DNA of 64,000 bases from an uncultured Holophagaceae bacterium (GCA_903857495.1 CAIOFF010000034.1:13467-77466), one strand, 5' to 3'; counted from the stretch's first letter, positions 32,896 through 46,183 are shown. Translations and numbers: made by a program. The notes: a model not told the origin generated them from the sequence alone.

Positions 32896-34275
32896 TCAGC
32901 TCTCCCTGGGCTCGATGCCCAGGGCCTTGAGACGCTTGTAGAGGTTGGAGCGGTCCATGCCCACGCGCTCGGCGACGCGGGTCATGTTGCCGTTCTGGAA
33001 GCGCATCTCCCGCTGCAGGTACTGGGCCTCGAACCAGTCCCGGGCCTCCTTGAGGCTGGTGAACTCGGGGAAGGAGAAGGGATCCTGCTCCTGGAGGTGG
33101 CGGGTGGCCAGGGGGCCCAGGTCCCGGGGGCCCAGCTCGCTGCCGCGGCCCAGGATGACGGCCCGCTCCATGAGGTTCTTCAGCTCGCGCACGTTGCCGG
33201 GCCAGTCGTGGCGCAGCAGCGTGTCCTTGGCCTCGGGGCCCAGGTGCTTCGGCGGCCGGCCGTACTGGTGGCCGATGCGCGAGATGAAGGCCTCGGCCAG
33301 GGGCAGGATGTCCTCGGGGCGCTCGCGCAGCGGGGGAACGCGCAGGGGCACCACGGCGAGCCGGAAGTAGAGGTCCTCGCGGAAGCGACCCCGGGTGATC
33401 TCGCCGGCCAGGTCCTTGTTGGTGGCGGCGATGACGCGCACGTCCACGCCCACGGCGCCGCCGCCGCCCACGGGCTCCACGCGGCCCTCCTGCAGGGCGC
33501 GGAGGACCTTGGCCTGGGTCTTGAGGGACATGTCGCCCACTTCATCGAGGAACAGGGTGCCGCCGTCGGCCTCCCGGAACTTGCCCTTCTGGTCGCGGAT
33601 CGCGCCGGTGAAGGCACCCTTCTGGTGGCCGAACAGTTCGCTCTCGATCAGCTCTTCGGGGATGGCTGCGCAGTTCACCTCCACGAAGGGCGCGTCCTTG
33701 CGGGGGCTCTGCAGGTGGAGGAGGCGGGCCACTTCTTCCTTGCCACTGCCGTTCTCACCCGTGAGCAGCACGCGGCCCTCCGTGGGCGCCACCAGGGTCA
33801 CATCGGCCATGAGCCGCCGCATGGCGGGGCTGTCCGCCAGGAAGAAGCGGCCACCCTCGACCTCGGCGTGCAGGCGCTGGTTCTCCTGCTCCAGCCTGGA
33901 CTGCCGGAGGGCGTTGCCCACCACCAGCAGCAGGCGGTCCAGGTCGATGGGCTTCTCGAGGAAATCGAAGGCCCCCAGCTTGGTGGCCTGCAGGGCGGTG
34001 TCGATGCTGGCGTGACCCGAGATCATGACCACGGGCAGCTCAGGCCGGAGCTGCTTGGCCTGCTTCAGGGTCTCCAGGCCGTCCTGGCCAGGCAGCCACA
34101 CATCCAGCAGCACCAGCTCGATGCCCTCGCCATCCGGGTTGTGCAGCAGGTCGACAGCCTGCTCGCCGCGCTCGGCCTTCACCACCTGGTAGCCCTCGTC
34201 CTTGAGGGCTTCGCCGAGCGACCGCCGGATCCCCGGCTCGTCGTCCACCAGCAGGATGGTCGTGGGAGGGCGCAT
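32896..34275 (-). CDS. Sigma54-dependent response regulator, NtrX/NtrC family
   Basis: VDDE, LLDVWLPG..DG, MISGHA (NtrX-like), GENGSGKE, GAFTGA, LFLDEV, WPGNVREL, Fis HTH. Confidence 0.92.
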   Translation of the reverse strand: MRPPTTILLVDDEPGIRRSLGEALKDEGYQVVKAERGEQAVDLLHNPDGEGIELVLLDVWLPGQDGLETLKQAKQLRPELPVVMISGHASIDTALQATKLGAFDFLEKPIDLDRLLLVVGNALRQSRLEQENQRLHAEVEGGRFFLADSPAMRRLMADVTLVAPTEGRVLLTGENGSGKEEVARLLHLQSPRKDAPFVEVNCAAIPEELIESELFGHQKGAFTGAIRDQKGKFREADGGTLFLDEVGDMSLKTQAKVLRALQEGRVEPVGGGGAVGVDVRVIAATNKDLAGEITRGRFREDLYFRLAVVPLRVPPLRERPEDILPLAEAFISRIGHQYGRPPKHLGPEAKDTLLRHDWPGNVRELKNLMERAVILGRGSELGPRDLGPLATRHLQEQDPFSFPEFTSLKEARDWFEAQYLQREMRFQNGNMTRVAERVGMDRSNLYKRLKALGIEPRES

Positions 34276-34322
34276 GCCTCCATGCTGGGTGCGGGACAAG
34301 CCTTTGTCCAGCAGTGGGTTGT

Positions 34323-34922
34323 CTATAAATCCACCAATGCCTTACTCGCTTCGGCCACCAGGGCCACGGCCAGCTCCGCGGCGCCCAGGTAGTAGGGCTG
34401 CGCGGCCACCTGGGGCAGCTGCTCGGCCACGGCTGCCGTAAAGGGCTCCAGGTGCTCCCGGAGCAGCCGCTGGGCCAGCGCCACGAAGGTGGCCCGGTCG
34501 GCCAGGTCGCCCTCCACCACCTGCCCCAGCAGGTAGCTCAGGCAGGCCAGCTCCAGGCCCAGGTGGTCCGGCGGGGTGGCGAGGTCCTCGTCCACGGCGA
34601 TGTCGGCCTCGTCGTAGATGGCCTGGAGCGGCCCGATGACGGCCGGGGCCATGAGGTGCCCCCGGGCCTGGGCAGACTCGAAGAGGTGCACCGTGTCCGT
34701 GGTCAGGGCGTGCCGGAAGAGGCGGGCGTATTCCACGGGCTGGGCGGCCAGATCGAGCCCGGCGCCGGTCATGCGGGCCAGGGGCGCCAGCAGCTCCGGA
34801 CTGCCGCCCTCGGCCTGCAGCTGCGCGAGGACCTCCCGCAGGTCGTCGCCCAGGTCGGCGTCCGGTTCCAGGAAGACTTCGGCGAGGAGCTGGCTGAGAT
34901 CCGCGAGATAGGCAAGAGACAT
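34323..34922 (-). CDS. TorD/DmsD-family molybdoenzyme chaperone
   Basis: EYARLF, PPDHLGLEL, EHL motifs; last gene of a molybdoenzyme operon. Confidence 0.85.
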   Translation of the reverse strand: MSLAYLADLSQLLAEVFLEPDADLGDDLREVLAQLQAEGGSPELLAPLARMTGAGLDLAAQPVEYARLFRHALTTDTVHLFESAQARGHLMAPAVIGPLQAIYDEADIAVDEDLATPPDHLGLELACLSYLLGQVVEGDLADRATFVALAQRLLREHLEPFTAAVAEQLPQVAAQPYYLGAAELAVALVAEASKALVDL

Positions 34923-34931
34923 GGTGTGTCC

Positions 34932-35912
34932 TTAGTGCAGCATCCCCATCTTGTGGAAGCTGCTCACCTGGCCAGCGTAGACGAAGATGTAGCGGAGCAG
35001 GAAGCCGCCCAGGAGGACCAGGCTCGAGGCCACCAGGGCCAGCCTGCGGTCGCCGTGGAAGGCCTTGCCCTTGAAGAGGCTGGGGGCCAGCTCCGAGACC
35101 TCGATGCCCAGGGGCACCAGCAGGCCCAGGCCCATGAAGAAGACCCAGAACACCACGGTGTAGGGGCCGCCGAGGATGAGCCACAGGGCCTGCTTCACGG
35201 CCAGCACCGAGAGCTGCCCGTGGATGAGGTAGGGCAGGATGATGAACAGCTCCAGCACGATGAAGACGATGTCCAGGGTGATGAGGAACTTGGTCTCGTG
35301 GGTCTCGATGGGACTCCGCTTGTCGAGCACCATGGCCAGGAGCAGGGCCGCAGCGCCGCTGGAGAGGGCGGAGAACAGGAACATCTGGGCCACCAGGTTG
35401 GTGTTCCAGAAGGGGCGGGCGGAGACGGCGCCGAGCAGCACGCCGGTGTAGATGCCCACACCGATGGAGAAGGGGAAGCCCACCATGGCGATGACCTTGC
35501 GGTAGGGCGCCAGGTCCACGTTCAGGCGGTGCACCTGCTTCCAGGTCGCAGGGAGCTTCTGGAACAGCTGCTGCCGCCAGGCCTCCGGCAGCCAGGCGTA
35601 GGCGTAGACGAAGGTGATGCCCGTGAACAGCATCAGCAGGTAGGAGCCGATGGACATGGGGCTCTCCCAGCGGAAGTGCGTGAACAGCTTGTAGAACCGG
35701 TACCAGTTGCCCAGGTCGAGGATGAGCAGGGCCGAGCCGATGGCCACGGGCCACGGCGCCAGCAGGGCGCCCATGGCCGCCACGCGGGGGTAGGCGGGCT
35801 GGCCGTCGACCTCCAGGTAGTTGGCGAGGCCCGCGGCGAAGAAGAGGCCGGCGGAGAGGCCGCCCAGGAAGAGGTAGACGACGATCAGGAGACCCCAGTT
35901 GAACTCGTGCAT
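34932..35912 (-). CDS. NrfD/PsrC-family membrane anchor subunit
   Basis: WG..IVVYLFLGGLSAG, LDLG...RF, SPMSIGS, YTGVLL....RPFWN, R..FVY.GQ. Confidence 0.9.
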   Translation of the reverse strand: MHEFNWGLLIVVYLFLGGLSAGLFFAAGLANYLEVDGQPAYPRVAAMGALLAPWPVAIGSALLILDLGNWYRFYKLFTHFRWESPMSIGSYLLMLFTGITFVYAYAWLPEAWRQQLFQKLPATWKQVHRLNVDLAPYRKVIAMVGFPFSIGVGIYTGVLLGAVSARPFWNTNLVAQMFLFSALSSGAAALLLAMVLDKRSPIETHETKFLITLDIVFIVLELFIILPYLIHGQLSVLAVKQALWLILGGPYTVVFWVFFMGLGLLVPLGIEVSELAPSLFKGKAFHGDRRLALVASSLVLLGGFLLRYIFVYAGQVSSFHKMGMLH

Positions 35913-35921
35913 GGCTTCCTC

Positions 35922-36473
35922 CTACAGCAGGTAATAGAGTTGGGGGCCGTTGCCCGTCTGGGGTTCCTTCACGCGGTAGCGCCGCGTGGCGAGCAGCTCG
36001 TGGACCCGGCTGGTGGGGTCCTCCAGGTCGCCGAAGACGCGCACCTTCGAGGGGCAGGTCTCCACGCAGGCGGGCAGGTCGCCCTTGTCCACGCGGTGGC
36101 TGCAGAGGGTGCACTTGTGGACCGTGCCGCTCTCCTCATGGAAGTAGCGGGCGTCATAGGGGCAGGCCACCATGCAGTAGCGGCAGCCGATGCAGTCGTC
36201 ATAGTTCACGAGCACGACGCCGTCCTTGCGCATCCAGGTGGCGCCGGTGGGACAGACCCGGGCGCAGGAGGGATGCTCGCAGTGGTGGCACTGCTCCGGC
36301 TCGAAGTCGATGCGGAGCTTGGGATACTCGCCCTGCCGCGCCTCGTTGATCCAGTTCCGGGTGTTGCCCACGGGGACCTGGTTCTCGGCCTTGCAAGCGA
36401 CGGCGCAGGCTTTGCAGTTGATGCACTTCCTGGAGTCGAGGACGAGGGCGTAACGCTTCTTCTTCATGGCCAT
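35922..36473 (-). CDS. PsrB/NrfC-type 4x[4Fe-4S] electron-transfer subunit
   Basis: CINCKAC..AC, CHHC.HPSC..VCP, CIGCRYC..ACP, CTLC...CVETCP. Confidence 0.93.
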   Translation of the reverse strand: MAMKKKRYALVLDSRKCINCKACAVACKAENQVPVGNTRNWINEARQGEYPKLRIDFEPEQCHHCEHPSCARVCPTGATWMRKDGVVLVNYDDCIGCRYCMVACPYDARYFHEESGTVHKCTLCSHRVDKGDLPACVETCPSKVRVFGDLEDPTSRVHELLATRRYRVKEPQTGNGPQLYYLL

Positions 36474-36485
36474 GGCTCATCCTCC

Positions 36486-38672
36486 TCAGGCGTTCGCGAC
36501 TTTGACGAAGGTCTCGTGGAAGGCCGCGTTGCCGGAGACCTTGTCCCAGGCGGTCTCGAGGATCACGGCATCACTGGCGCCCACGTTGTAGACCAGGCTC
36601 TGCAGCTTCGACTTCTTGCCGAAGCCGTGGAGCATGAACACGCAGTCCGGCCGGATCTCCTCCGTGACGCGGGCCTTGAGCCTCACCTTGCCCACGCTGC
36701 TGGCGACCTCCACGAGGGCGCCGTTCCGGATGCCGAGCCGCTCCGCGGGCTTCGGATTGATCCAGAGGTCGTTCTCCTTCATGAACTCGTTCAGCCAGAC
36801 GTTGTTGGTCTGGTTCGCGTGGGTGAAGTAGCCCACCCGGCCCAGGATGAGGCGGAAGCGGTCGTCCGGCGGCTGCACCGGGGCGGTGTAGGCCGGCAGC
36901 GGGTCGTAGCCCGCCTCCTGCAGCCGCTGGGAGAACAGCTCGATCTTCCCGGTCTTGGTGACGAAGCGGAAGTCGGGGTTCAGGGTCTTGCCGTAGGTGG
37001 GCTTGCCACTGGCGGCCCACACGCCGTGCTTCTTCATGTGCTCCATGGCCATGGGGATGGGCAGCTCCTTGAACTCCGCCTCCACCCACTGCTCGATGGT
37101 GTAGTCGAAGTAGTCGGAGAGGCCGAGCCGCTTCGCCAGGCCCTGGATGATCTCCAGGTTGGGTTTCGTGTCGTGGATGGGCTTCACCACCTGCTGCCGG
37201 TAGACCACCGCTGGCCAGATGCCGGCCATGACCTCCACGGGGTCCGTGCGCTCCAGGTAGGCGCTCTCGGGGAAGACCACGTCGGCGTACCAGGCCATGT
37301 CGCTCATGGCCACGTCGATGACGCCGATGAAGTCCATGCCCTCGATCATCTTCAGGGTCTTGGCCTGGTCCGGCATGGCGTTCATGGGGTCCTGCTTGTA
37401 GACCATCCAGGCCTTGATGGGGTAGGGCTTCCCGCTGAGCACGTTCTCGCGCAGCTTCAGGTAGACCCCGTCGCCCTTGGCGGCCAGGGGGAAGTGCTTC
37501 TCGATCTCGTCCACCCGGGGGGCCTTTGGCTCGTCCCAGGGCATGAAGAGGAACTCGCCCTTGGGCAGCTTGGCGTTGGGCACCATGCCGCCGACCTGGT
37601 CCCAGTTGCCGATGATGGCATTCAGGATGGCCTGGGCGCGGCGCATCTGGAAGTCGTTCTGGTACCAGGAGGAGCGCCGTCCGGCGTAGTAGAGGGACCG
37701 GGGCGCGGCGTCCGCGAACTCCCGGGCGATACGGGTGATGTCCCTGGCCGGGATCTCGGTTTCCTTCTCGGCCCACTCCGGCGTGTACTGCTTCACGTGC
37801 TCGGCCAGCTCGTCGAAGCCCGTGGTGTAGGCGGCGACGAAGTCCTTGCTGTGCCGGTTTTCCTTGATGATCACGTGGATCATCGCAAGGATGAACGCCA
37901 GGTCGGTGCCGGGCTTGATGGGGTACCACTCGTCGGCCTTGGCGGCGGTGACGGTGAAGCGGGGATCCAGGTAGACCAGCTTCGCCTTGCGCTCCATGAC
38001 GCCGCCGATGAGGTCCATGGTGTCGGGCGTGATGATGCTCTCGAAGCGGTTGGCGCCGGACATGATGACGAACTTGCTGTTCAGCAGGTCGAAGCTGGGC
38101 ACGGTGCCGAAGGTGGCGCTGTAGGCCAGGTTCACGGAGGCCAGGCAGAGGGTTGGGTGGCGCACCAGGTTGGGCGAGCCGAAGGCCAGGCCCAGGTTCT
38201 TGAAGAAGACCTCCTGGAAGCCCTCGGTGGAGGACCAGAGGGAGGCCTCGGGGCCGTGCTTGGCCTTAACCTCGCCCAGCTTCTTCGCGGCGAAGTCGAA
38301 GGCCTCGTCCCAGCTCACTTCCTTCCACTTGCCCTCGCCCCGGGCGCCCATGCGGATCATGGGCTTCTTGATCCGGTCGGGGTCGTAGACCTGCTTGATG
38401 GCGGCGTTCCCGCGGGCGCAGAGCATGTCGCGCGACTTGGGATTCTCGGGGTTCGGGTTGAGCTTCTTGACCACCCCGCCCTCGACCACCGCGATGGCCG
38501 AGCACTTGTTGGGGCACAGCTCGCAGGTGGTGGGGACTTCCCGGTTCTCGGCGGCGGCGCTGCGGCCCTTCTTGAAGTAGCTGAGGCAGGCCACCTGCGT
38601 GGTGGCCGCGGCTCCGGCAGTGGCGCCCGCTGCCTTCAGGAACAGCCGGCGATCCATGCGAATGCTTCCCAT
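36486..38672 (-). CDS. Molybdopterin oxidoreductase catalytic subunit, polysulfide/thiosulfate reductase (PsrA/PhsA)-like
   Basis: Tat motif DRRLFLK; FS0 CELCPNKC...LCARG; putative Cys Mo ligand in GSPNLVRHPTLC; DVVFPESAYLER. Substrate is inferred. Confidence 0.85.
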   Translation of the reverse strand: MGSIRMDRRLFLKAAGATAGAAATTQVACLSYFKKGRSAAAENREVPTTCELCPNKCSAIAVVEGGVVKKLNPNPENPKSRDMLCARGNAAIKQVYDPDRIKKPMIRMGARGEGKWKEVSWDEAFDFAAKKLGEVKAKHGPEASLWSSTEGFQEVFFKNLGLAFGSPNLVRHPTLCLASVNLAYSATFGTVPSFDLLNSKFVIMSGANRFESIITPDTMDLIGGVMERKAKLVYLDPRFTVTAAKADEWYPIKPGTDLAFILAMIHVIIKENRHSKDFVAAYTTGFDELAEHVKQYTPEWAEKETEIPARDITRIAREFADAAPRSLYYAGRRSSWYQNDFQMRRAQAILNAIIGNWDQVGGMVPNAKLPKGEFLFMPWDEPKAPRVDEIEKHFPLAAKGDGVYLKLRENVLSGKPYPIKAWMVYKQDPMNAMPDQAKTLKMIEGMDFIGVIDVAMSDMAWYADVVFPESAYLERTDPVEVMAGIWPAVVYRQQVVKPIHDTKPNLEIIQGLAKRLGLSDYFDYTIEQWVEAEFKELPIPMAMEHMKKHGVWAASGKPTYGKTLNPDFRFVTKTGKIELFSQRLQEAGYDPLPAYTAPVQPPDDRFRLILGRVGYFTHANQTNNVWLNEFMKENDLWINPKPAERLGIRNGALVEVASSVGKVRLKARVTEEIRPDCVFMLHGFGKKSKLQSLVYNVGASDAVILETAWDKVSGNAAFHETFVKVANA

Positions 38673-38703
38673 GAGGATCTCCCAAGAAACGGGGGGACAA
38701 GAA

Positions 38704-38732
38704 CCGGGCCAGGGGGTGTCGCCCTGGCCCGG
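38704..38732 (-). terminator. 11-bp GC hairpin between porin gene and psrA (stabiliser or partial terminator)
   Basis: CCGGGCCAGGG / CCCTGGCCCGG with 7-nt loop, followed by TTCTTGT on the minus strand. Confidence 0.5.
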
Positions 38733-38744
38733 AGGTCTACTGCA

Positions 38745-40442
38745 CTAGAAACGGACCTCGAGCGAGGCGTAGTAGTTCCTCAAGGTGGCCGGGTAGGAGT
38801 ACTGCAGCATGGGATTGTTGGCGAGGTTCATCGCGGACTCCCAGTTCTGGCCAGCCTGGGCGGAAGGCCCGATCTGCCAGCCGCTCATGGCGGTGCTGTA
38901 CTTGTAGTCGATCACGCCGAGCCGGAGGCCGGCATTCTTGGCGAAGCGCCACTGGATGTAGCCCTCCCACACGTCGCCGCGGGCGCCGAGCTTGTCGGTG
39001 TATTCGCCGGTGGCGGGGGTGTAGGTCCACCAGCGAGGAGACCCGTGGTTGAACTCGACGCCGAACCCGAAGGCCGGGGTCGGGTCATAGCGCACGCCGG
39101 TGTAGTAGGCCGTGGCCGTCTGGCTCTTGTTGGGGTCGCCCATGAGGCCGCCGAAGCCGGACAGCTGCGTGAGGCCGGTGGGGTAGCCCGCGGGCATCAC
39201 GGAGGGGAACGTCCAGTAGGCGCCGTACTGCGAGACCTTGCCATTCGGCAGGCTCTTGAGGTAGCCGGCGCTCACGAAGTAGGTGAACGTGTCGCCGATC
39301 TTGTGCTTCCAGGTAGCCGTGAACTGGTCCATGTCGCCGAGGTTGGCGGTGGCGCTGACGTACTGGGTCGAAGGCGTCTGGCCGGGGATGGGGAAGTTGA
39401 TGGTGTTCCCGAAGGGGATGTCCGTCATGTTGCCCATGCGGTTGTAGCCCAGGTAGAGGTTCGCGCTCTGCACGGACTCGCCCAGCTGGAAGAGCAGGGG
39501 CATGTCGAACATCACGCCCAGGACCGTGGTGTCCTTGAGGGGGCCAATGTTGCCAACCACCGGCGCGATGGCGGAGGGGTTCGTCCCGTTGAACTTGGCG
39601 AAGTCCATGCCGACGATGTTCTGGTTCGACTTGACGTTGCCGCCGCCGCCGAAGCCGCTCTCGTAGCCCACGCCGTAGCAGAGGCCCAGCAGGGTGTCCT
39701 CGGGGAAGCCGAGCTTGTCGAGCTGGAACTTCCAGCCGATGCCGTCGATGGTGGCGTTCACGGCCAGGGCCTGGGGCGTCGCCTGGCGCTCACCGCCTTC
39801 ACGCACTTCGAAGGGCGGGCCGTCCGAGGTGTTCTGGCGACCGATGGAGAGGATGCTGGCGACGGAGTTGAAGTGGTAGACCAGGCTGGCCCGCTCCACC
39901 AGCAGCGCGTCCGTGGCGGGCGTCTGGCCGGCGGTGAAGGCGGTGCTGATGGTGTTGGGCGTGCCGTTGAAGGTGGGCACGTCCGAGCCGCCGTGGATCT
40001 TGTACATGACGAGGCGGCCCATGATCTTGGCGTTCTCGTTGATGGTCATGCCCATGTTCAGGCGGAGCCGGGTGGACCACTGGACCGAGTTGCTCCAGTC
40101 CTGGGCGCTGACCGGCTGGGCGATGGGCATGGGCATCCCGGCGGCCGGGCCGGAAGGCGTCTGCATGAAGCCCATGAACTGCTGGTAGGGCTTGAAGGAC
40201 TCCTTGGTGCTGTCGAAGCGGGTGCGGAGCTCGCCGCTCCAGGCGATGTTCATGCCGGAGACCTTGGTCTCGACCTTGACCAGGCGTTCATCCACCGCCT
40301 GGGCGGTGGCGGCCTTCTCTTCGATGGCCTTGAGCTGGAGCTTCAGCTGCTCGATCTGCTTCTGCAGCTCGGCGGGGGTCTGGGCGCTCAGGGCTGCGGG
40401 CGCCAGCAGGGCGACGAGGGCGAGCGTGATGCGGGATTTCAT
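38745..40442 (-). CDS. Outer-membrane beta-barrel/porin with N-terminal coiled coil, DUF3373-like
   Basis: Signal peptide LSA|QT, coiled coil ELQKQIEQLK, WSGELRTRFD first strand, LSIGRQ, terminal ..EVRF (C-terminal Phe). Confidence 0.75.
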   Translation of the reverse strand: MKSRITLALVALLAPAALSAQTPAELQKQIEQLKLQLKAIEEKAATAQAVDERLVKVETKVSGMNIAWSGELRTRFDSTKESFKPYQQFMGFMQTPSGPAAGMPMPIAQPVSAQDWSNSVQWSTRLRLNMGMTINENAKIMGRLVMYKIHGGSDVPTFNGTPNTISTAFTAGQTPATDALLVERASLVYHFNSVASILSIGRQNTSDGPPFEVREGGERQATPQALAVNATIDGIGWKFQLDKLGFPEDTLLGLCYGVGYESGFGGGGNVKSNQNIVGMDFAKFNGTNPSAIAPVVGNIGPLKDTTVLGVMFDMPLLFQLGESVQSANLYLGYNRMGNMTDIPFGNTINFPIPGQTPSTQYVSATANLGDMDQFTATWKHKIGDTFTYFVSAGYLKSLPNGKVSQYGAYWTFPSVMPAGYPTGLTQLSGFGGLMGDPNKSQTATAYYTGVRYDPTPAFGFGVEFNHGSPRWWTYTPATGEYTDKLGARGDVWEGYIQWRFAKNAGLRLGVIDYKYSTAMSGWQIGPSAQAGQNWESAMNLANNPMLQYSYPATLRNYYASLEVRF

Positions 40443-40503
40443 AGGGTGTCTCCGTGGAGAACGGTTCAGAAGGGGAAGGAAGAGACAGCGGCCTGGCGGC
40501 GGC

Positions 40504-40824
40504 TCAGCCGCCGCAGGTCTCGGGCTGCGGGGAGTCGGAGGCGTGATTGACCAGGAAGGTCTGCACGTCCTTGACCTGCTCGGGCTTCAGCACGGAGTCG
40601 AGCTTCTCGGCGCCCTTCTTGTGCTTGCCGGCCGCGAAGTAGGCCTTCCACTGGGCCTGGGTCTTCGAGAGCGGGGTGATCTCCTTGGCCGGGGTGCCGG
40701 GCGCGTGGCAGGCCTTGCAGGTCTTCTTGAAGAAGAACTTGCCCTTGGTGTCGCTGCCGCCCTCGGCGGCCAGGGGGGTCGCGAGCACGGCGAGGAGGGT
40801 GAGGAGCTTCAGGGTGTTCCGCAT
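40504..40824 (-). CDS. Small periplasmic monoheme cytochrome c
   Basis: Signal peptide; single CKACH; C-terminal NHASDSPQPETCG. Confidence 0.85.
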   Translation of the reverse strand: MRNTLKLLTLLAVLATPLAAEGGSDTKGKFFFKKTCKACHAPGTPAKEITPLSKTQAQWKAYFAAGKHKKGAEKLDSVLKPEQVKDVQTFLVNHASDSPQPETCGG

Positions 40825-40955
40825 GGAGCACGTCCTTTCTGGGGTGGGTGGAGGTAGAGAAAGGCCGAGGCACTGGGGGGTGCAGTCGGTCGGTTAGGAC
40901 ACTCGCGTGGGGTCGAACAGTGGACACATTTCCAGATCCGCTGGATAGAGGATGG

Positions 40956-40998
40956 AAGGGTAATGATCGGGGTCAAGCGGTTCGTGACCAAGGTCACA
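40956..40998 (-). promoter_or_regulatory. CRP/FNR-like site (AAATGTGA-ccttgg-TCACG) with downstream TACCCT -10: class II-like promoter of the cyt c-porin-psr operon
   Basis: 16-mer 40983-40998 matches TGTGA-N6-TCACA at 9/10; TAnnnT hexamer gives a site centre near -40.5. Confidence 0.55.
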
Positions 40999-41177
40999 TT
41001 TAATTAAATAACCACAAAGGAATAAATGCTCAACCTCCCTGTTTGTCGCGTTTCTTTTTTCATTAATCACAAAATCGCCCACATTGACCGACCCGGATTC
41101 CGCGTGGTGTTCGGCGTCAACGACCCCCGGATTCCGGTGTTGAGGCCGGAATCCAGGGGTGGAAAGGCACTGCTCGC

Positions 41178-42767
41178 CTAGGTCCGGAACTGCCCCACGG
41201 TTTTCGCGAGGTCCTCGGCCACGTGGGCGAGGTCGCTGGAGGTCCGGGCCACCTCCTGGACGGTGCTCGCGAGCTGCGCGGTGGCAGTTGCGTTCTGGGT
41301 GGCCTGCTGGGCGCCATCCTCGACGTTGGCTGAGACCTCGTCGCTGGTGTGGGCCTGCTCGTCCGTGGCGCTGCCGATCTCCAGGATGAGGGCGGAGAGG
41401 CCGCCCACGCTCTCCTGGATGGAGCTCAGGGCCCGCACGGTTTCGCTGACCGTCTTCTGGCCCCCGGCCACGGCGGTGTTGGCTTCCTTGATGATCCCGG
41501 CGATCTCCCGGGCGGCCTGGGTGGACCGCTCGGACAGCTTCCGGACCTCGTCGGCCACCACTGCGAAGCCCTTGCCGTGCTCCCCGGCCTTGGCGGCCTC
41601 GATGGCGGCGTTGAGGCTCAGCAGGTTGGTCTGCCGGGCGAGCTCCTGGATGACCTGGACGGCCTTGACGATCCGATCGGAGGTGCCCCGGATGGTGGTC
41701 ATGGCCTCCAGCGTGTGGCTGCCGGCCTGGTGTCCTTCGCCTGCGGCCCGCACGGCGGTGTCGGCCTGCTTGCCTGCCTGGTGGACGTTGGAGGCCACCT
41801 GCTGGATGGAGGCGGAGAATTGCGTGACGGCGGCGGCGAGGCGCTCGGTGCTCTGCCGCTGCTCCTCGGCATTCCGAGCGATCTGGTTGGTGGTGGCGGC
41901 CATCTGCTCGGCCCCTGCGGACAGCTCCATGGAGCCGCTGGCCGTGCGTGCCGAGGCGTCCGAGAGGCCCTGCCAGATGATCCTGAGTTGCGCGAGGAAC
42001 TCATTGAAGGCCTTGGCCACGCGGCCCAGTTCGTCATCGCTGTGGATTGGCAGGTCCGCGCGGAGGTCGCCTCGGACCAGGCCCTGCTCGATGGCCCGGC
42101 ACATCTCCTCGGCGGGTCGGGCCACGCTCCGCGAGATGACGATCGACAGCCAGATGCCAAGGCCCAGGGCGCTCACCCCCAGGGCCAACAGCAGTAGGTC
42201 CGCGCGCTCCGAGGCCTTGATCGCCGCGAGACTCTGGGTCTTGGTGGATTGTTCCTTCAGGGCCGAGAGCTTCTCGAGGCCGGCCTCCCAGGCGTTGATG
42301 GCCTTGCGCCCCTCGCCGAAGATCAGCCGGACCGCTTCGTCTTTCCGGCCCTGGTCCGCCAGGCTCACGAACTCGTCGTGGATCCGATTGGCCGCGTCCC
42401 GGTCCGGCCGGAGCGTCTTCAGGATGGCGAGGGTCTCGAGGTCTTCCGGGCTGGTGAGCGCGGCGACCTGCTTTTCCGCGTCGTCATAGGTGGCCTTGGC
42501 CTTGGCGAGCTTCGCCTTCTGGGTCGTGCGCGCCGCGTCCGAGGACTCCAGGGCGTAGGCGCGGATGAAGCGTCCGGTCAGGAGCATCTGCCGGTCCATG
42601 AGCGCCCCGAGGACCAGGCACCGCTGCTCCTTTTCCACCAGCTGCTTGAGCGTGGCCTGGGCCCGGTTGGCCTGGAGGTGGGCGACCAGGACTGCGAAGA
42701 GCAGGAGCGCGAGCAGCGTCCCGAAGCCCAGGCCCAGCCGCCGCGCGATGTTCAGTTTCGCCAGCAT
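41178..42767 (-). CDS. Methyl-accepting chemotaxis protein (4-helix-bundle sensor, HAMP)
   Basis: [11 protein letters not shown]1, TM2, [41 protein letters not shown]. Confidence 0.95.
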
Positions 42768-43693: not shown

Positions 43694-44275
43694 CTAGTCG
43701 CCGGCTTCGAAGGCCTGGCGGTCCTCGGGCGTGTCCACATCGGCCCACTCGGGGCCCGCCTGGGGCAGGGCCAGGTGGGGCAGGGCGCTGGTCAGGCGCC
43801 AGAGGGAGCGCTCCCCGGAGGCCGCCAGGAGGGGGCGCAGGCGGGCCGGGAGCCAGCCGCCCAGGGGCTGCAGGTGGCCTTCGTGGAGGCCCACGACCCA
43901 GCAGGCAGCGGCAGGATCCGCGGCCGCGCAGAGGTCGGCCCAGGCCCGCAGGCGCTCGGGGGTCCAGCGCACCTGATCACAGGCCACGACCCACCAGCGG
44001 TCCACCTCGGGAGCCGCCGCCGTCGCCCAGAGGCGCAGGGCCGCCGCCGGTCCCTCGCGGGGATCATCGAGGCGGGACAGGTCGGGACGGTCCGGCAGGG
44101 CCTCGCCCAGCACCTGGACGGGTCCGTCCGGGAAGACGGCCTCGAAAACCCGCACCAGGTGCCCGCCCCAGCTGCCGCCCGCGGGGTGCTCCAGGGCGTG
44201 CTTCCGGGCGCCCATGCGCTGCCCGGCGCCGCCGCTCAGCAGCAGCAGCCCCGCCCTCAACCGCCGACCTGCCAC
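43694..44275 (-). CDS. mobA: Molybdenum cofactor guanylyltransferase MobA-like (NTP_transf_3)
   Basis: LLSGGAGQRMG..K, GP.AAL, VVACD, HLQPL, terminal DVDTPED; overlaps moaA stop. Confidence 0.75.
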   Translation of the reverse strand: MAGRRLRAGLLLLSGGAGQRMGARKHALEHPAGGSWGGHLVRVFEAVFPDGPVQVLGEALPDRPDLSRLDDPREGPAAALRLWATAAAPEVDRWWVVACDQVRWTPERLRAWADLCAAADPAAACWVVGLHEGHLQPLGGWLPARLRPLLAASGERSLWRLTSALPHLALPQAGPEWADVDTPEDRQAFEAGD

Positions 44276-45258
44276 ATGCCCAGGGGAAGGTCCGGCGCCC
44301 CGCCGTGGCGCATGGGGTGGCAGTCGAGTTTCAGCGAGAGGGACTGGCGGATGAGCTCGACGAGCTCGTCATGGGTTGCCCGGGCTCGCAGGGGCTGGAG
44401 CAGGCTCACGGGGCGGTTGCCGAACAGGCAGGCATTGAGGTCGCCCTGGCTGGTGAGGCGCACCCGGTTGCAGTGGTTGCAGAAGTCCGCGCTGAGGGTG
44501 GAGATCACGCCGACCTTCCCCTGGCTCCCGGGGATGCGGAAGAGCCGCGCGGGGCCTTCTTCGAGGCCCACGCCGGGTTCCTCCTCCAGGGTGGTTCCCA
44601 GGCCGTCCTGGATGACACGGAGGATCTCCGCCGCGGGCATGAACTGCTCCCGGCCCCAGCCGTTGCCCAGGTAGGGCATGAACTCGATGAAGCGCACCTG
44701 GATGCCGTCCTGCTGGGCCAGCCGCGCCAGGGGCAGGATCTGGCTGTCATTCCAGCCGCGCAGCACCACGGCATTGAGCTTGGTCTTCAGGCCCACGGCC
44801 CGGGCGGCCTCCAGCCCCGCCAGCACCCGGCCGAGGCCGTCCTTGGTGGTGAGGCGCTCGAAGGTCTCGCGGTCCGCGGCGTCCAGGCTGACGTTGACGC
44901 CCAGCAGGCCGGCGTCCCGGAGGCTGCGCGCCCGTCGGGCCAGGTGGAGGCCATTGGTGGTGAGGTGCACCCGGCCTTCCACCTCGGGGCTGATGCCCGC
45001 GACGATGGTCTCCAGGTCCCTGCGCAGGAGCGGCTCGCCGCCGGTGAGGCGGACCTTGCGGATGCCCAGGCTGGTGAAGACCTTCACGAGCCGGACCACC
45101 TCATTGCGGCTCATGGCCGGAGTGGCGGTCCGCTCACAGGTGCCGGTCCTCGGCTTGCAGTAGACGCAGGCCAGGTTGCACTGGTCAGTGACGGACACGC
45201 GAAGGTAGGTGATGCCGCGGCCCAGGCCATCCTTGAGTTCGTCCTTCACGCGGAGCAT
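44257..45258 (-). CDS. moaA: GTP 3',8-cyclase MoaA (radical SAM)
   Basis: YLRVSVTDQCNLACVYC, RLTGGEPLLR, FIEFMP, FCNHCNRVRL...C, C-terminal GG. Confidence 0.95.
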   Translation of the reverse strand: MLRVKDELKDGLGRGITYLRVSVTDQCNLACVYCKPRTGTCERTATPAMSRNEVVRLVKVFTSLGIRKVRLTGGEPLLRRDLETIVAGISPEVEGRVHLTTNGLHLARRARSLRDAGLLGVNVSLDAADRETFERLTTKDGLGRVLAGLEAARAVGLKTKLNAVVLRGWNDSQILPLARLAQQDGIQVRFIEFMPYLGNGWGREQFMPAAEILRVIQDGLGTTLEEEPGVGLEEGPARLFRIPGSQGKVGVISTLSADFCNHCNRVRLTSQGDLNACLFGNRPVSLLQPLRARATHDELVELIRQSLSLKLDCHPMRHGGAPDLPLGMWQVGG

Positions 45259-45403
45259 GCGGGGCAGCGGGGTCTGGGGGGGCTGCAGATAGAGGGGAGG
45301 CACGGGGGCTCCATTCCTTCCCAGGATGCCGCGTAAGCCGACCTGCGGCAGGGGTTCGTGCCAACGGTCACAGCGGCCCGGGGCTCCGTGAGAGGATGGA
45401 GCC

Positions 45404-46183
45404 ATGCTCGTGGACGCGCACTGCCACCTCACCGGGACCTACCTGGAAGCCGACCAGGTGGAGGTCACTCTGGCCCGGGCGCGGGCGCAGGATGTGACCG
45501 GGTTCATCGCCGTGGGCACGGATCTGGAGGACTCGCGGACGGTGCTGGCCCTGGCGGTTCGCACGCCCGGCGTCCAGGCCAGCCTGGGGGTGCATCCCCA
45601 CGAGGCCAAGTCCTGGTCGCCGGAGGTCGCCACTGCCCTGGAGGCCCTGCTGCGCCATCCCGCCGTGCGCTTCGTGGGCGAGACGGGCCTGGACTGGCAC
45701 TACGACCTGAGCCCCCGCGACGTCCAGGAGACCGCGTTCCGGGCCCAGATCCGCCTGGCGAAGGCCATCGGGAAGCCCCTGATGATCCACACCCGGTCCG
45801 CCCCCGAGGCGACGCTCCAGGTGCTTGAGGAAGAGGGAGCCGACGCGGTGCGCGGCATCATCCACTGCTTCAGCGAGGACCGCGCCTTCGCCAGCCGGGC
45901 GCTGGACCTGGGCTTCTACCTGAGCTTCTCGGGCATCGCCACCTTCAAGAACGCCCTGGCGGTCCGCGAGGTCGCGGCCTGGGCCCCGGCGGACCGCATC
46001 CTGGTGGAGACCGACGCGCCCTTCCTGGCGCCGGTGCCCTACCGGGGCAAGCCCAACGAGCCGGGCTTCGTGCGGTTCACGGCGGAGGTTGTGGCGGGGC
46101 TGCGAGGGATTCCTGCCACCCGGCTCGCGGAGCAGACCACCCAGAACCTGGAGGCCCTGTGCGGCTGGGCGCCCTCCTCCTGA
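45404..46183 (+). CDS. tatD: TatD-family DNase
   Basis: DAHCHL, GVHPH, GETGLD, IHTR, HCFS, ETDAPFL.P.P.RGKPNEP. Confidence 0.95.
   Translation: MLVDAHCHLTGTYLEADQVEVTLARARAQDVTGFIAVGTDLEDSRTVLALAVRTPGVQASLGVHPHEAKSWSPEVATALEALLRHPAVRFVGETGLDWHYDLSPRDVQETAFRAQIRLAKAIGKPLMIHTRSAPEATLQVLEEEGADAVRGIIHCFSEDRAFASRALDLGFYLSFSGIATFKNALAVREVAAWAPADRILVETDAPFLAPVPYRGKPNEPGFVRFTAEVVAGLRGIPATRLAEQTTQNLEALCGWAPSS

Follow-up and report, generated by a model that had tools for sequence, protein, structure and literature searches.

Periplasmic reductases of the polysulfide and thiosulfate type, as represented by Thermus PsrABC (PDB 2VPW-2VPZ), Wolinella Psr and Salmonella Phs, are built to a common plan in which a catalytic subunit that binds a bis-molybdopterin guanine dinucleotide cofactor and carries a twin-arginine translocation (Tat) signal is combined with an iron-sulfur (FeS) subunit of four clusters and an NrfD-type quinol anchor. 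Here we analyse a locus of this plan in a 64,000-nucleotide stretch of DNA from an uncultured Holophagaceae bacterium (GCA_903857495.1 CAIOFF010000034.1:13467-77466; the window), in which positions 34,323 to 40,998 hold an operon that differs from the described ones in being led by genes for a small cytochrome c and an outer-membrane (OM) porin and in ending with the gene for a TorD-like chaperone. An OM component is described for psr/phs operons nowhere in the open literature that we searched, in agreement with a preliminary description of the window which had stated that canonical operons of this kind lack one. Our reading, which we hold to be probable, is that the locus encodes a reductase of sulfur compounds that works in the periplasm and is served by a dedicated OM entry module, itself redox-active, at the head of a single operon.

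The porin belongs to the DUF3373/Omp50 family (TCDB 1.B.60/1.B.62), which includes Campylobacter jejuni OMP50 (Cj1170c; PDB 10aw/10dn). A 2026 cryo-electron microscopy (cryo-EM) study showed OMP50 to be a trimer of 16-strand barrels with a narrow pore of <3 Å radius, in which the N-terminal helix, 44 residues long, builds a coiled-coil stalk in the periplasm and loop L4 (residues 240-260) enters the neighbouring barrel (PMC13759207). DUF3373 is not linked to reductases in the open literature searched, and the account of Psr and of octahaem tetrathionate reductase (Otr) in Acidobacteriota by Flieder et al. is given without a cytochrome-porin pair (PMC8528874). The literature searched on Psr-containing and sulfur-respiring organisms either discusses other porins (OprD-like, OprO/P-like) or states that the route across the OM is unknown, as does a 2026 Science Advances study of Geobacter MccSep (PMC13510729) and as do accounts of Campylobacterota and of sulfur disproportionators (PMC10045233, PMC13490349).

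A portable cytochrome-porin pair

A scan of genomes, taking one genome per species and using an alignment of the cytochrome as query, returned 135 relatives, and 80 loci were kept. These are nearly all from Acidobacteriota, comprising Holophagae, Thermoanaerobaculia, Terriglobia/Bryobacterales and one genome labelled Aminicenantes. A DUF3373 gene lies near the cytochrome gene in every locus where the contig allows it to be seen, mostly adjacent to it and sometimes beyond the reductase genes. For P0242 and P0259 the contigs are too short to show neighbours. Taken over Acidobacteriota and diverse metagenomes, adjacent cytochrome and porin genes are seen in ~170 loci. The gene order of the window recurs in Geothrix campi, and also in Mesoterricola silvestris, there without the chaperone gene and with other flanks. 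The best matches to the porin and cytochrome themselves are from Geothrix (Holophagaceae, Acidobacteriota), reaching 86% identity to G. limicola. A variant order, in which the cytochrome gene is followed by a gene for a ZnuA-like periplasmic binding protein, then by psrABC and finally by the DUF3373 porin gene, is seen in five loci (L069:10330-11328, L062, L066, L079 and L082).

Three types of reductase accompany the pair. Psr-like genes for molybdenum (Mo), FeS and NrfD subunits are present in 57 of the first 86 loci. In nine loci, other Geothrix included, the partner is a protein of the Otr family (TIGR04315, 543 bits with a cut-off of 375; PDB 1SP3, E 2e-105) together with a cytochrome b561. 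The third partner, found in ten loci and again associated with a cytochrome b561, is a membrane-anchored multihaem protein of 695-755 amino acids with a C-terminal membrane helix (for example L064:10272-13917 and L005:9944-12650); it matches no solved structure, and faint similarity is seen only to Otr and to methanogen multihaem families. The same pairing with the same partners holds for porins that are only 27-36% identical and lie on unrelated metagenome contigs. A metagenome scan gave >312 relatives, and its longer loci comprise 14 of Psr type, seven of Otr type and a single one with the anchored multihaem protein; the Geomonas locus L088, which came from a different search, adds another of Otr type.

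All three partners are complete quinol-linked periplasmic reductases which need no extra cytochrome, and the pair is therefore best understood as an accessory on the substrate side rather than as a supply of electrons. The cytochrome and porin are a portable two-gene module, a dedicated and co-regulated accessory of a reductase. The earlier idea of a module belonging to Psr operons thus stands as far as dedication to a reductase is concerned and falls as far as specificity for Psr is concerned, since the same pair serves the Otr-type and the third, multihaem reductases.

Holophagaceae carry a second cytochrome-porin pair in their Otr-type loci, placed ahead of the octahaem and cytochrome b561 genes (L048:10001-14491, from a Geothrix sp. 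metagenome-assembled genome, and L042, L045, L047, L049-L051, L060 and L080). Within Geothrix the Psr-linked porins form two groups by identity to the window porin, at ~84% and ~68% (loci L014-L060), and several Otr-linked porins (77-84%) are nearer to the window porin than many Psr-linked ones are, a pattern not shared by the cytochrome or PsrA. The comparison suggests that the porin gene may have been exchanged between Psr-type and Otr-type operons.

Shewanella oneidensis presumably has a related pair, SO_4142/SO_4143, at its otr locus (Otr, PDB 1SP3). The product name of SO_4142 is the one given to the Geothrix cytochrome, a likeness in annotation. SO_4142 is listed as a 'periplasmic monoheme cytochrome c' of unknown role, and the open literature searched holds no published function for SO_4142 or SO_4143 (PMC5789149).

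The reductase belongs to the Psr/Phs family

The family of the Mo subunit was assigned from profile and PDB scores. Its match to Thermus thermophilus PsrA is full-length (PDB 2VPW; E 1e-133, 450 bits), the next solved relatives being acetylene hydratase (E 1e-58) and ArrA (E 1e-52, 182 bits). Its NCBIfam scores are 623.2 bits for PhsA, 293 for DmsA/YnfE, 197 for ArrA and 86 for TtrA. Because the first of these lies below the 694-bit cut-off of the PhsA equivalog NF012032, the subunit should not be named PhsA. The architecture is that of PsrABC, with a Tat signal, a 4Fe-4S site (FS0), molybdopterin and dinucleotide-binding domains and, downstream, the FeS and NrfD genes. Compared with Thermus PsrA, the subunit retains the Mo-ligand Cys173 and Arg332 and has Glu in place of His145. 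The FeS subunit gives DsrO-, TtrB- and NrfC-type NCBIfam matches, every one below cut-off. Judged by these comparisons the Mo enzyme is a member of the Psr/Phs family, closer to PsrA/PhsA than to ArrA, TtrA or DmsA, and the PsrABC/PhsABC-like label that it had first been given is appropriate. The enzyme itself is ordinary; the module is widespread and appears to be undescribed.

Family membership leaves the substrate to be considered separately. We infer that it is an S-S-bonded sulfur species, because two of the three partner families are known for polysulfide/thiosulfate and for tetrathionate and because sediment microcosms given tetrathionate showed induction of an acidobacterial otr (PMC8528874). 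An enzyme of the same architecture that reduces selenite, tellurite, arsenate or nitrogen oxides, with the module importing the oxyanion, is in our judgement improbable. The low ArrA, TtrA and DmsA scores, far below those for PhsA/PsrA, argue against such a substrate, as does the induction of otr by tetrathionate, and the gene call of the G. campi locus holds no rhodanese gene (an exhaustive rhodanese scan of the window was not made). On the other side stand the missed PhsA cut-off, the replacement of His145, a rhodanese gene near the distant locus L003 and the reduction of nitrite and hydroxylamine by Otr in vitro. The selenite reductase SrrA, moreover, falls within the Psr/Phs clade (PMC8528874).

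A general-porin fold with a single cysteine

The preliminary description had recognized a DUF3373-like barrel, and the profile and model bear this out. In the AlphaFold2 model (predicted local distance difference test score 81) the signal peptide is followed by a long N-terminal helix (residues 23-63) and then by a beta-barrel, and the family profile matches OMP50 (PDB 10aw) with E 1.9e-64. The best structural matches of the model in Foldseek are general porins of 16-18 strands. OMP50 shares the long N-terminal helix and an adjoining gene for a small secreted partner.

These properties bear on whether the pair might be an electron conduit, with the haem protein inside the barrel passing electrons to S8 or Fe(III) in the manner of MtrAB or Geobacter Pcc. 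In MtrAB and Geobacter Pcc/Ext a cytochrome gene adjoins an OM barrel gene in a metal reducer, as here; porin-cytochrome clusters likewise place the cytochrome gene before the barrel gene, and Fe(III) reduction occurs in the host genus. However, the known conduits have 8-12 haems, a sheath of 20-26 strands and an extracellular cytochrome, whereas the pair described here has one haem and a barrel resembling 16-18-strand porins and the narrow-pored 16-strand OMP50 (PMC13759207), no extracellular cytochrome gene is present, and the partner enzymes are complete periplasmic reductases. The general-porin fold and the single haem argue strongly against an Mtr-type conduit, which we regard as very improbable, and they lend no support to the earlier suggestions, taken as describing a trans-envelope wire, of electron relay by the cytochrome or of porin contact with solid sulfur.

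C255, within the motif LCYGVGYESGF, is the sole cysteine of the porin. In the AlphaFold2 model it lies within strand 251-260, five residues ahead of the loop equivalent to L4. It is on the same face of the strand as the invariant G257, G259 and E261, and the alternate residues are hydrophobic. C255 therefore probably faces the lumen, on a wall made smooth by glycines, an orientation derived from residue alternation and homology rather than from coordinates. In OMP50 the position of this invariant cysteine is occupied by Ala.

A small cytochrome with an invariant tail

The mature cytochrome contains a single CKACH haem motif and no Met, and so departs from class I cytochromes c, in which CXXCH is accompanied by a Met sixth ligand. 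AlphaFold2 predicts a c6-like fold for it and leaves the C-terminal tail disordered. The tail sequence NHASDSPQPETCGG, which includes the second cysteine of interest, Cys104, is invariant in Holophagaceae, and at 31% overall identity the tail still reads H-A-x-D-S-x-Q-P-x-T-C-G, with CXXCH also kept. His68 and Cys104 are candidates for the sixth haem ligand. Because homologues that have no haem retain the tail residue His94, it probably serves in docking rather than as a haem ligand.

Sequence and fold searches of the PDB with the cytochrome gave generic c6-type matches only. The Foldseek matches to TsdA and PsbV2, which have His/Cys haems, were non-significant (E 0.06-0.3) and were not used as evidence. 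Sulfur cytochromes with His/Cys-ligated haem, such as SoxA, TsdA, DsrJ and MccSep, are like this protein in having a c-type haem without a Met ligand. A further likeness is to the sulfur carrier SoxYZ, which has a C-terminal GGCGG swinging arm: the cytochrome has its cysteine two to three residues from a Gly-rich flexible end (TCGG) and is likewise tied to enzymes of sulfur compounds. SoxY has an Ig-like fold and the cytochrome a predicted c6-like one, so that the resemblance is limited to the C-terminal Cys-Gly-Gly. In many metagenome loci (L102, L106, L116, L124, L128, L129, L149 and L165) two small cytochromes in tandem, with tails ending ...QPQTCG and ...QPATCGQ, stand ahead of the porin.

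Two cysteines and a haem occur together

In the first set of porins the C255 column holds Cys in 68 of 71 sequences, the three misses being alignment gaps, and of 98 distant DUF3373 representatives 48 have Cys, Ala (AYGKGYQ) taking its place in the other half of the family. A census covering every locus gave 113 adjacent and 14 nearby pairs in which a protein with haem and tail cysteine accompanies a porin with the cysteine, with no exception where the column could be read. The four Cys-less porins that were inspected each adjoin a small protein lacking both CXXCH and the tail cysteine. Three of these partners keep the QW and HAADSDQP motifs and one is more divergent (RAADNPNK), and their C-termini read ...ESAGF, ...EAAGM, ...AVAGK and ...TVAGG. 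The partners of Omp50-type (Cys-less) porins that were examined are not beside reductases. The preliminary description had noted neither the tail cysteine of the cytochrome nor the lone cysteine of the porin, nor that both are missing, along with the haem, from this sister clade.

The haem-less, Cys-less partners of Omp50-type porins are secreted proteins of 77-88 amino acids (L089:63-314, L172:4735-5001, L173:284-538 and L170:1454-1687), and a Pfam search found no family that covers them. The small periplasmic protein co-transcribed with OMP50, Cj1169c, is a candidate member of this haem-less family.

When 99 representatives were placed on a tree, porins with and without the cysteine fell into two clean clades separated by one change. 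The idea that the two cysteines and the haem covary repeatedly was dropped in view of this single split; their joint presence is a trait of a subfamily, and its weight lies in strict invariance across very deep divergence. In Geomonas azotofigens (L088:6001-11645) a Cys-type porin is followed not by the cytochrome but by a DUF5666 protein ending ...KTAGC, with two Otr-like genes next. This DUF5666 protein is unrelated to the cytochrome and is conserved across Geomonas and Citrifermentans, and the replacement hints slightly, and independently, that what the porin needs may be a cysteine at the partner's C-terminus.

Much of this evidence can also be read in a plainer way, in which the porin is an ordinary diffusion porin expressed together with the reductase. 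The cytochrome would then be a periplasmic partner that is held to the porin through a structural disulfide or ligates its haem with the tail cysteine; it would sense redox state or carry electrons in a minor way, and the cysteines would take part in no sulfur chemistry. We consider this rather unlikely, the purely structural disulfide tether being nonetheless the main rival to our reading. The joint change from Cys to Ala is most simply read as the joint loss of a disulfide pair; haem-less homologues retain the tail motif, its His included, so that the tail would dock with or without the cysteine; and with no Met ligand, His/Cys or bis-His ligation of the haem is possible. However, PsrABC and Otr/cytochrome b have quinol-oxidising subunits of their own, and so leave no need for an additional carrier, and the form with haem and cysteines, wherever its context can be read, is beside reductases of S-S-type substrates, whereas the Cys-less form in the long contig L172 is not.

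Expression of the operon

The upstream palindrome TGTGACCTTGGTCACG matches the CRP-type consensus TGTGA-N6-TCACA at 15 of 16 positions. By number alone such sites are not above chance in the window (two found, 0.83 expected), and it is conservation that makes this one credible: in 49 Holophagaceae loci GTGA-N6-TCAC precedes the start of the cytochrome gene by ~173 nucleotides, with the same palindrome ahead of Psr-type and Otr-type loci alike, although it is absent from the upstream regions of the more distant lineages. Beside the palindrome lie a conserved AT-rich box and a hexamer, TTGACC (40976..40971); G. campi retains these flanks. A simple sigma-70 scan found no promoter, and inspection by eye of the region ahead of the cytochrome gene, and of the ~30 nucleotides between the hairpin described below and psrA, showed no sigma-54 -24/-12 element.

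The strong hairpin reported between the porin and psrA genes is present, with a stem of 11 base pairs (10 of them GC) followed by a weak U-tract (UUCUUGU). The 88-nucleotide intergenic stretch folds at -36.6 kcal/mol (z -2.2), the best 44-nucleotide window, at the hairpin, reaching -27.5 kcal/mol. A hairpin of unrelated sequence is found at the same position in most of the 58 Psr-type loci scanned; where the stem is clear its folding energy is -27 to -44 kcal/mol, and a good U-tract is usually missing. The ~30 nucleotides that remain before the psrA start leave no room for a psrA promoter.

Contigs from four lake metatranscriptomes, 90-99% identical to the window, cover positions 34137-40915 and are absent from 40916-41400, so that RNA coverage starts downstream of the palindrome. 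DNA from the same sample covers the upstream chemoreceptor gene, whose 3' end is in none of the RNA contigs, which indicates that the RNA signal is not carried over from DNA. The operon is thus transcribed in lake water. Summed contig depth over the cytochrome and porin genes exceeds that over psrA by 3.2-4.1x in the three deeper RNA runs and ~16-fold in the sparse fourth, although expression is poorly gauged by the depth of contigs that were assembled from related strains; the corresponding ratio in DNA from the same sample is 0.86. The step in RNA depth falls in the bin that contains the hairpin, and one RNA contig (38635-39130) spans the hairpin into psrA. We take the locus to be one transcription unit with partial termination, or stabilisation of the 3' end, at the hairpin, which is probably either an attenuator or a structure stabilising the mRNA. 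The crossing contig agrees with the earlier view that the porin and cytochrome genes are not transcribed separately from psrA, the hairpin not dividing two independent units. Of the proposal that one CRP/FNR-like site governs all six genes, the site itself proved real and conserved, and its control of all six is only partly demonstrated by the RNA coverage and the single contig passing the hairpin.

A proposed redox-active entry module

We propose that the locus would operate as an anaerobically regulated operon, switched on as a whole by a CRP-family regulator at the upstream site, in which the enzyme would be a menaquinol-dependent periplasmic reductase of the Psr/Phs type. The hairpin would set the mRNA of the module several-fold above that of the enzyme while allowing read-through. 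The porin would form a trimeric diffusion pore of the Omp50 type with one invariant, probably lumen-facing cysteine, and the tail of the cytochrome would dock in or at the barrel, bringing C104 to C255; together with the haem, this pair of cysteines would constitute a redox-active unit. This contact and the chemistry of the cysteines and haem are, like the substrate, inferred, and two modes of action can be envisaged. As a relay, the unit would pass polysulfide, thiosulfate or tetrathionate inward to the enzyme as a thiol adduct (persulfide or thiosulfonate); as a gate, a reversible disulfide would open and close the pore. A more specific version is that the pair is the long-postulated thiol-bearing OM system, capturing sulfur that is zero-valent or S-S-bonded (S8, polysulfide, tetrathionate) by nucleophilic attack and handing the persulfide from the pore cysteine to the tail cysteine and on to the downstream reductase, with the haem resetting or gating the thiols. 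This version we offer as a tentative possibility.

A number of observations weigh against a sulfur-reducing, redox-active module. To our knowledge the species description of Geothrix fermentans reports no respiration of sulfur compounds. The Mo subunit misses the PhsA cut-off and lacks His145, and its clade extends to a selenite reductase. The lumenal orientation of C255 comes from alternation and homology, the joint presence of the cysteines and haem traces to a single change, and the depth step at the hairpin was read from assembled contigs. Finally, the paper on the cryo-EM structure of native OMP50 mentions no bound small partner (PMC13759207).

The pair is a specific and widespread two-gene candidate for the passage of polysulfide, thiosulfate, tetrathionate or solid sulfur across the OM, and one defined by features that can be mutated directly, namely two cysteines, one haem and one tail motif. 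The module is present in culturable organisms, including Geothrix fermentans (locus L032), Geomonas and probably Shewanella MR-1. It further suggests that iron-reducing Holophagaceae, which are abundant in lakes and soils, run sulfur-compound respiration, which could feed sulfide-mediated iron reduction in a cryptic sulfur cycle. The Omp50 porin family, so far known from Campylobacter alone, would gain a second, redox-active branch.

Gene layout and neighbouring genes

The DNA runs that contain the window sequence are from lake-water metagenomes, and the GC content of the window is ~66-70%. All six operon genes lie tightly spaced on the minus strand, as the preliminary description had them (Table 1).

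Table 1. Features of the operon and its borders, in window coordinates
Feature	Position	Strand	Length (amino acids)	Remarks
CRP-type palindrome TGTGACCTTGGTCACG	40998..40983			~175 nucleotides upstream of the cytochrome c start
Cytochrome c	40824..40504	-	106	Sec signal; single CKACH; weak class-I cytochrome c Pfam matches
DUF3373 porin	40442..38745	-	565	PF11853, E 6.5e-54
GC-rich hairpin, porin-psrA intergenic	38732..38704	-		Directly after the porin stop codon
Mo catalytic subunit (PsrA-like)	38672..36486	-	728	RRLFLK Tat motif; PF04879, PF00384 and PF01568
Four-cluster FeS subunit (PsrB-like)	36473..35922	-	183	PF13247, E 1.4e-26
NrfD/PsrC-type integral membrane anchor	35912..34932	-	326	PF03916, E 3.6e-51
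TorD/NarJ-type Tat proofreading chaperone	34922..34323	-	199	PF02613, E 6.7e-14
Sigma-54-dependent response regulator	32896..34299	-		23 nucleotides downstream of the chaperone gene; conserved neighbour

The chaperone gene is present in most Geothrix loci and absent in Mesoterricola. Upstream of the operon, at 41178-42767 and 44257-45432 (both minus strand), a gene for a four-helix-bundle chemoreceptor separates it from Mo-cofactor genes for MoaA and a probable MobA. In G. campi the Mo-cofactor genes adjoin the operon, with no intervening chemoreceptor gene. At the other end, the response regulator is 91-97% identical in relatives and is thus better conserved than the operon's chaperone or porin. 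Sigma-54 activators are frequent neighbours, and distant forms of the locus have them alongside as well.

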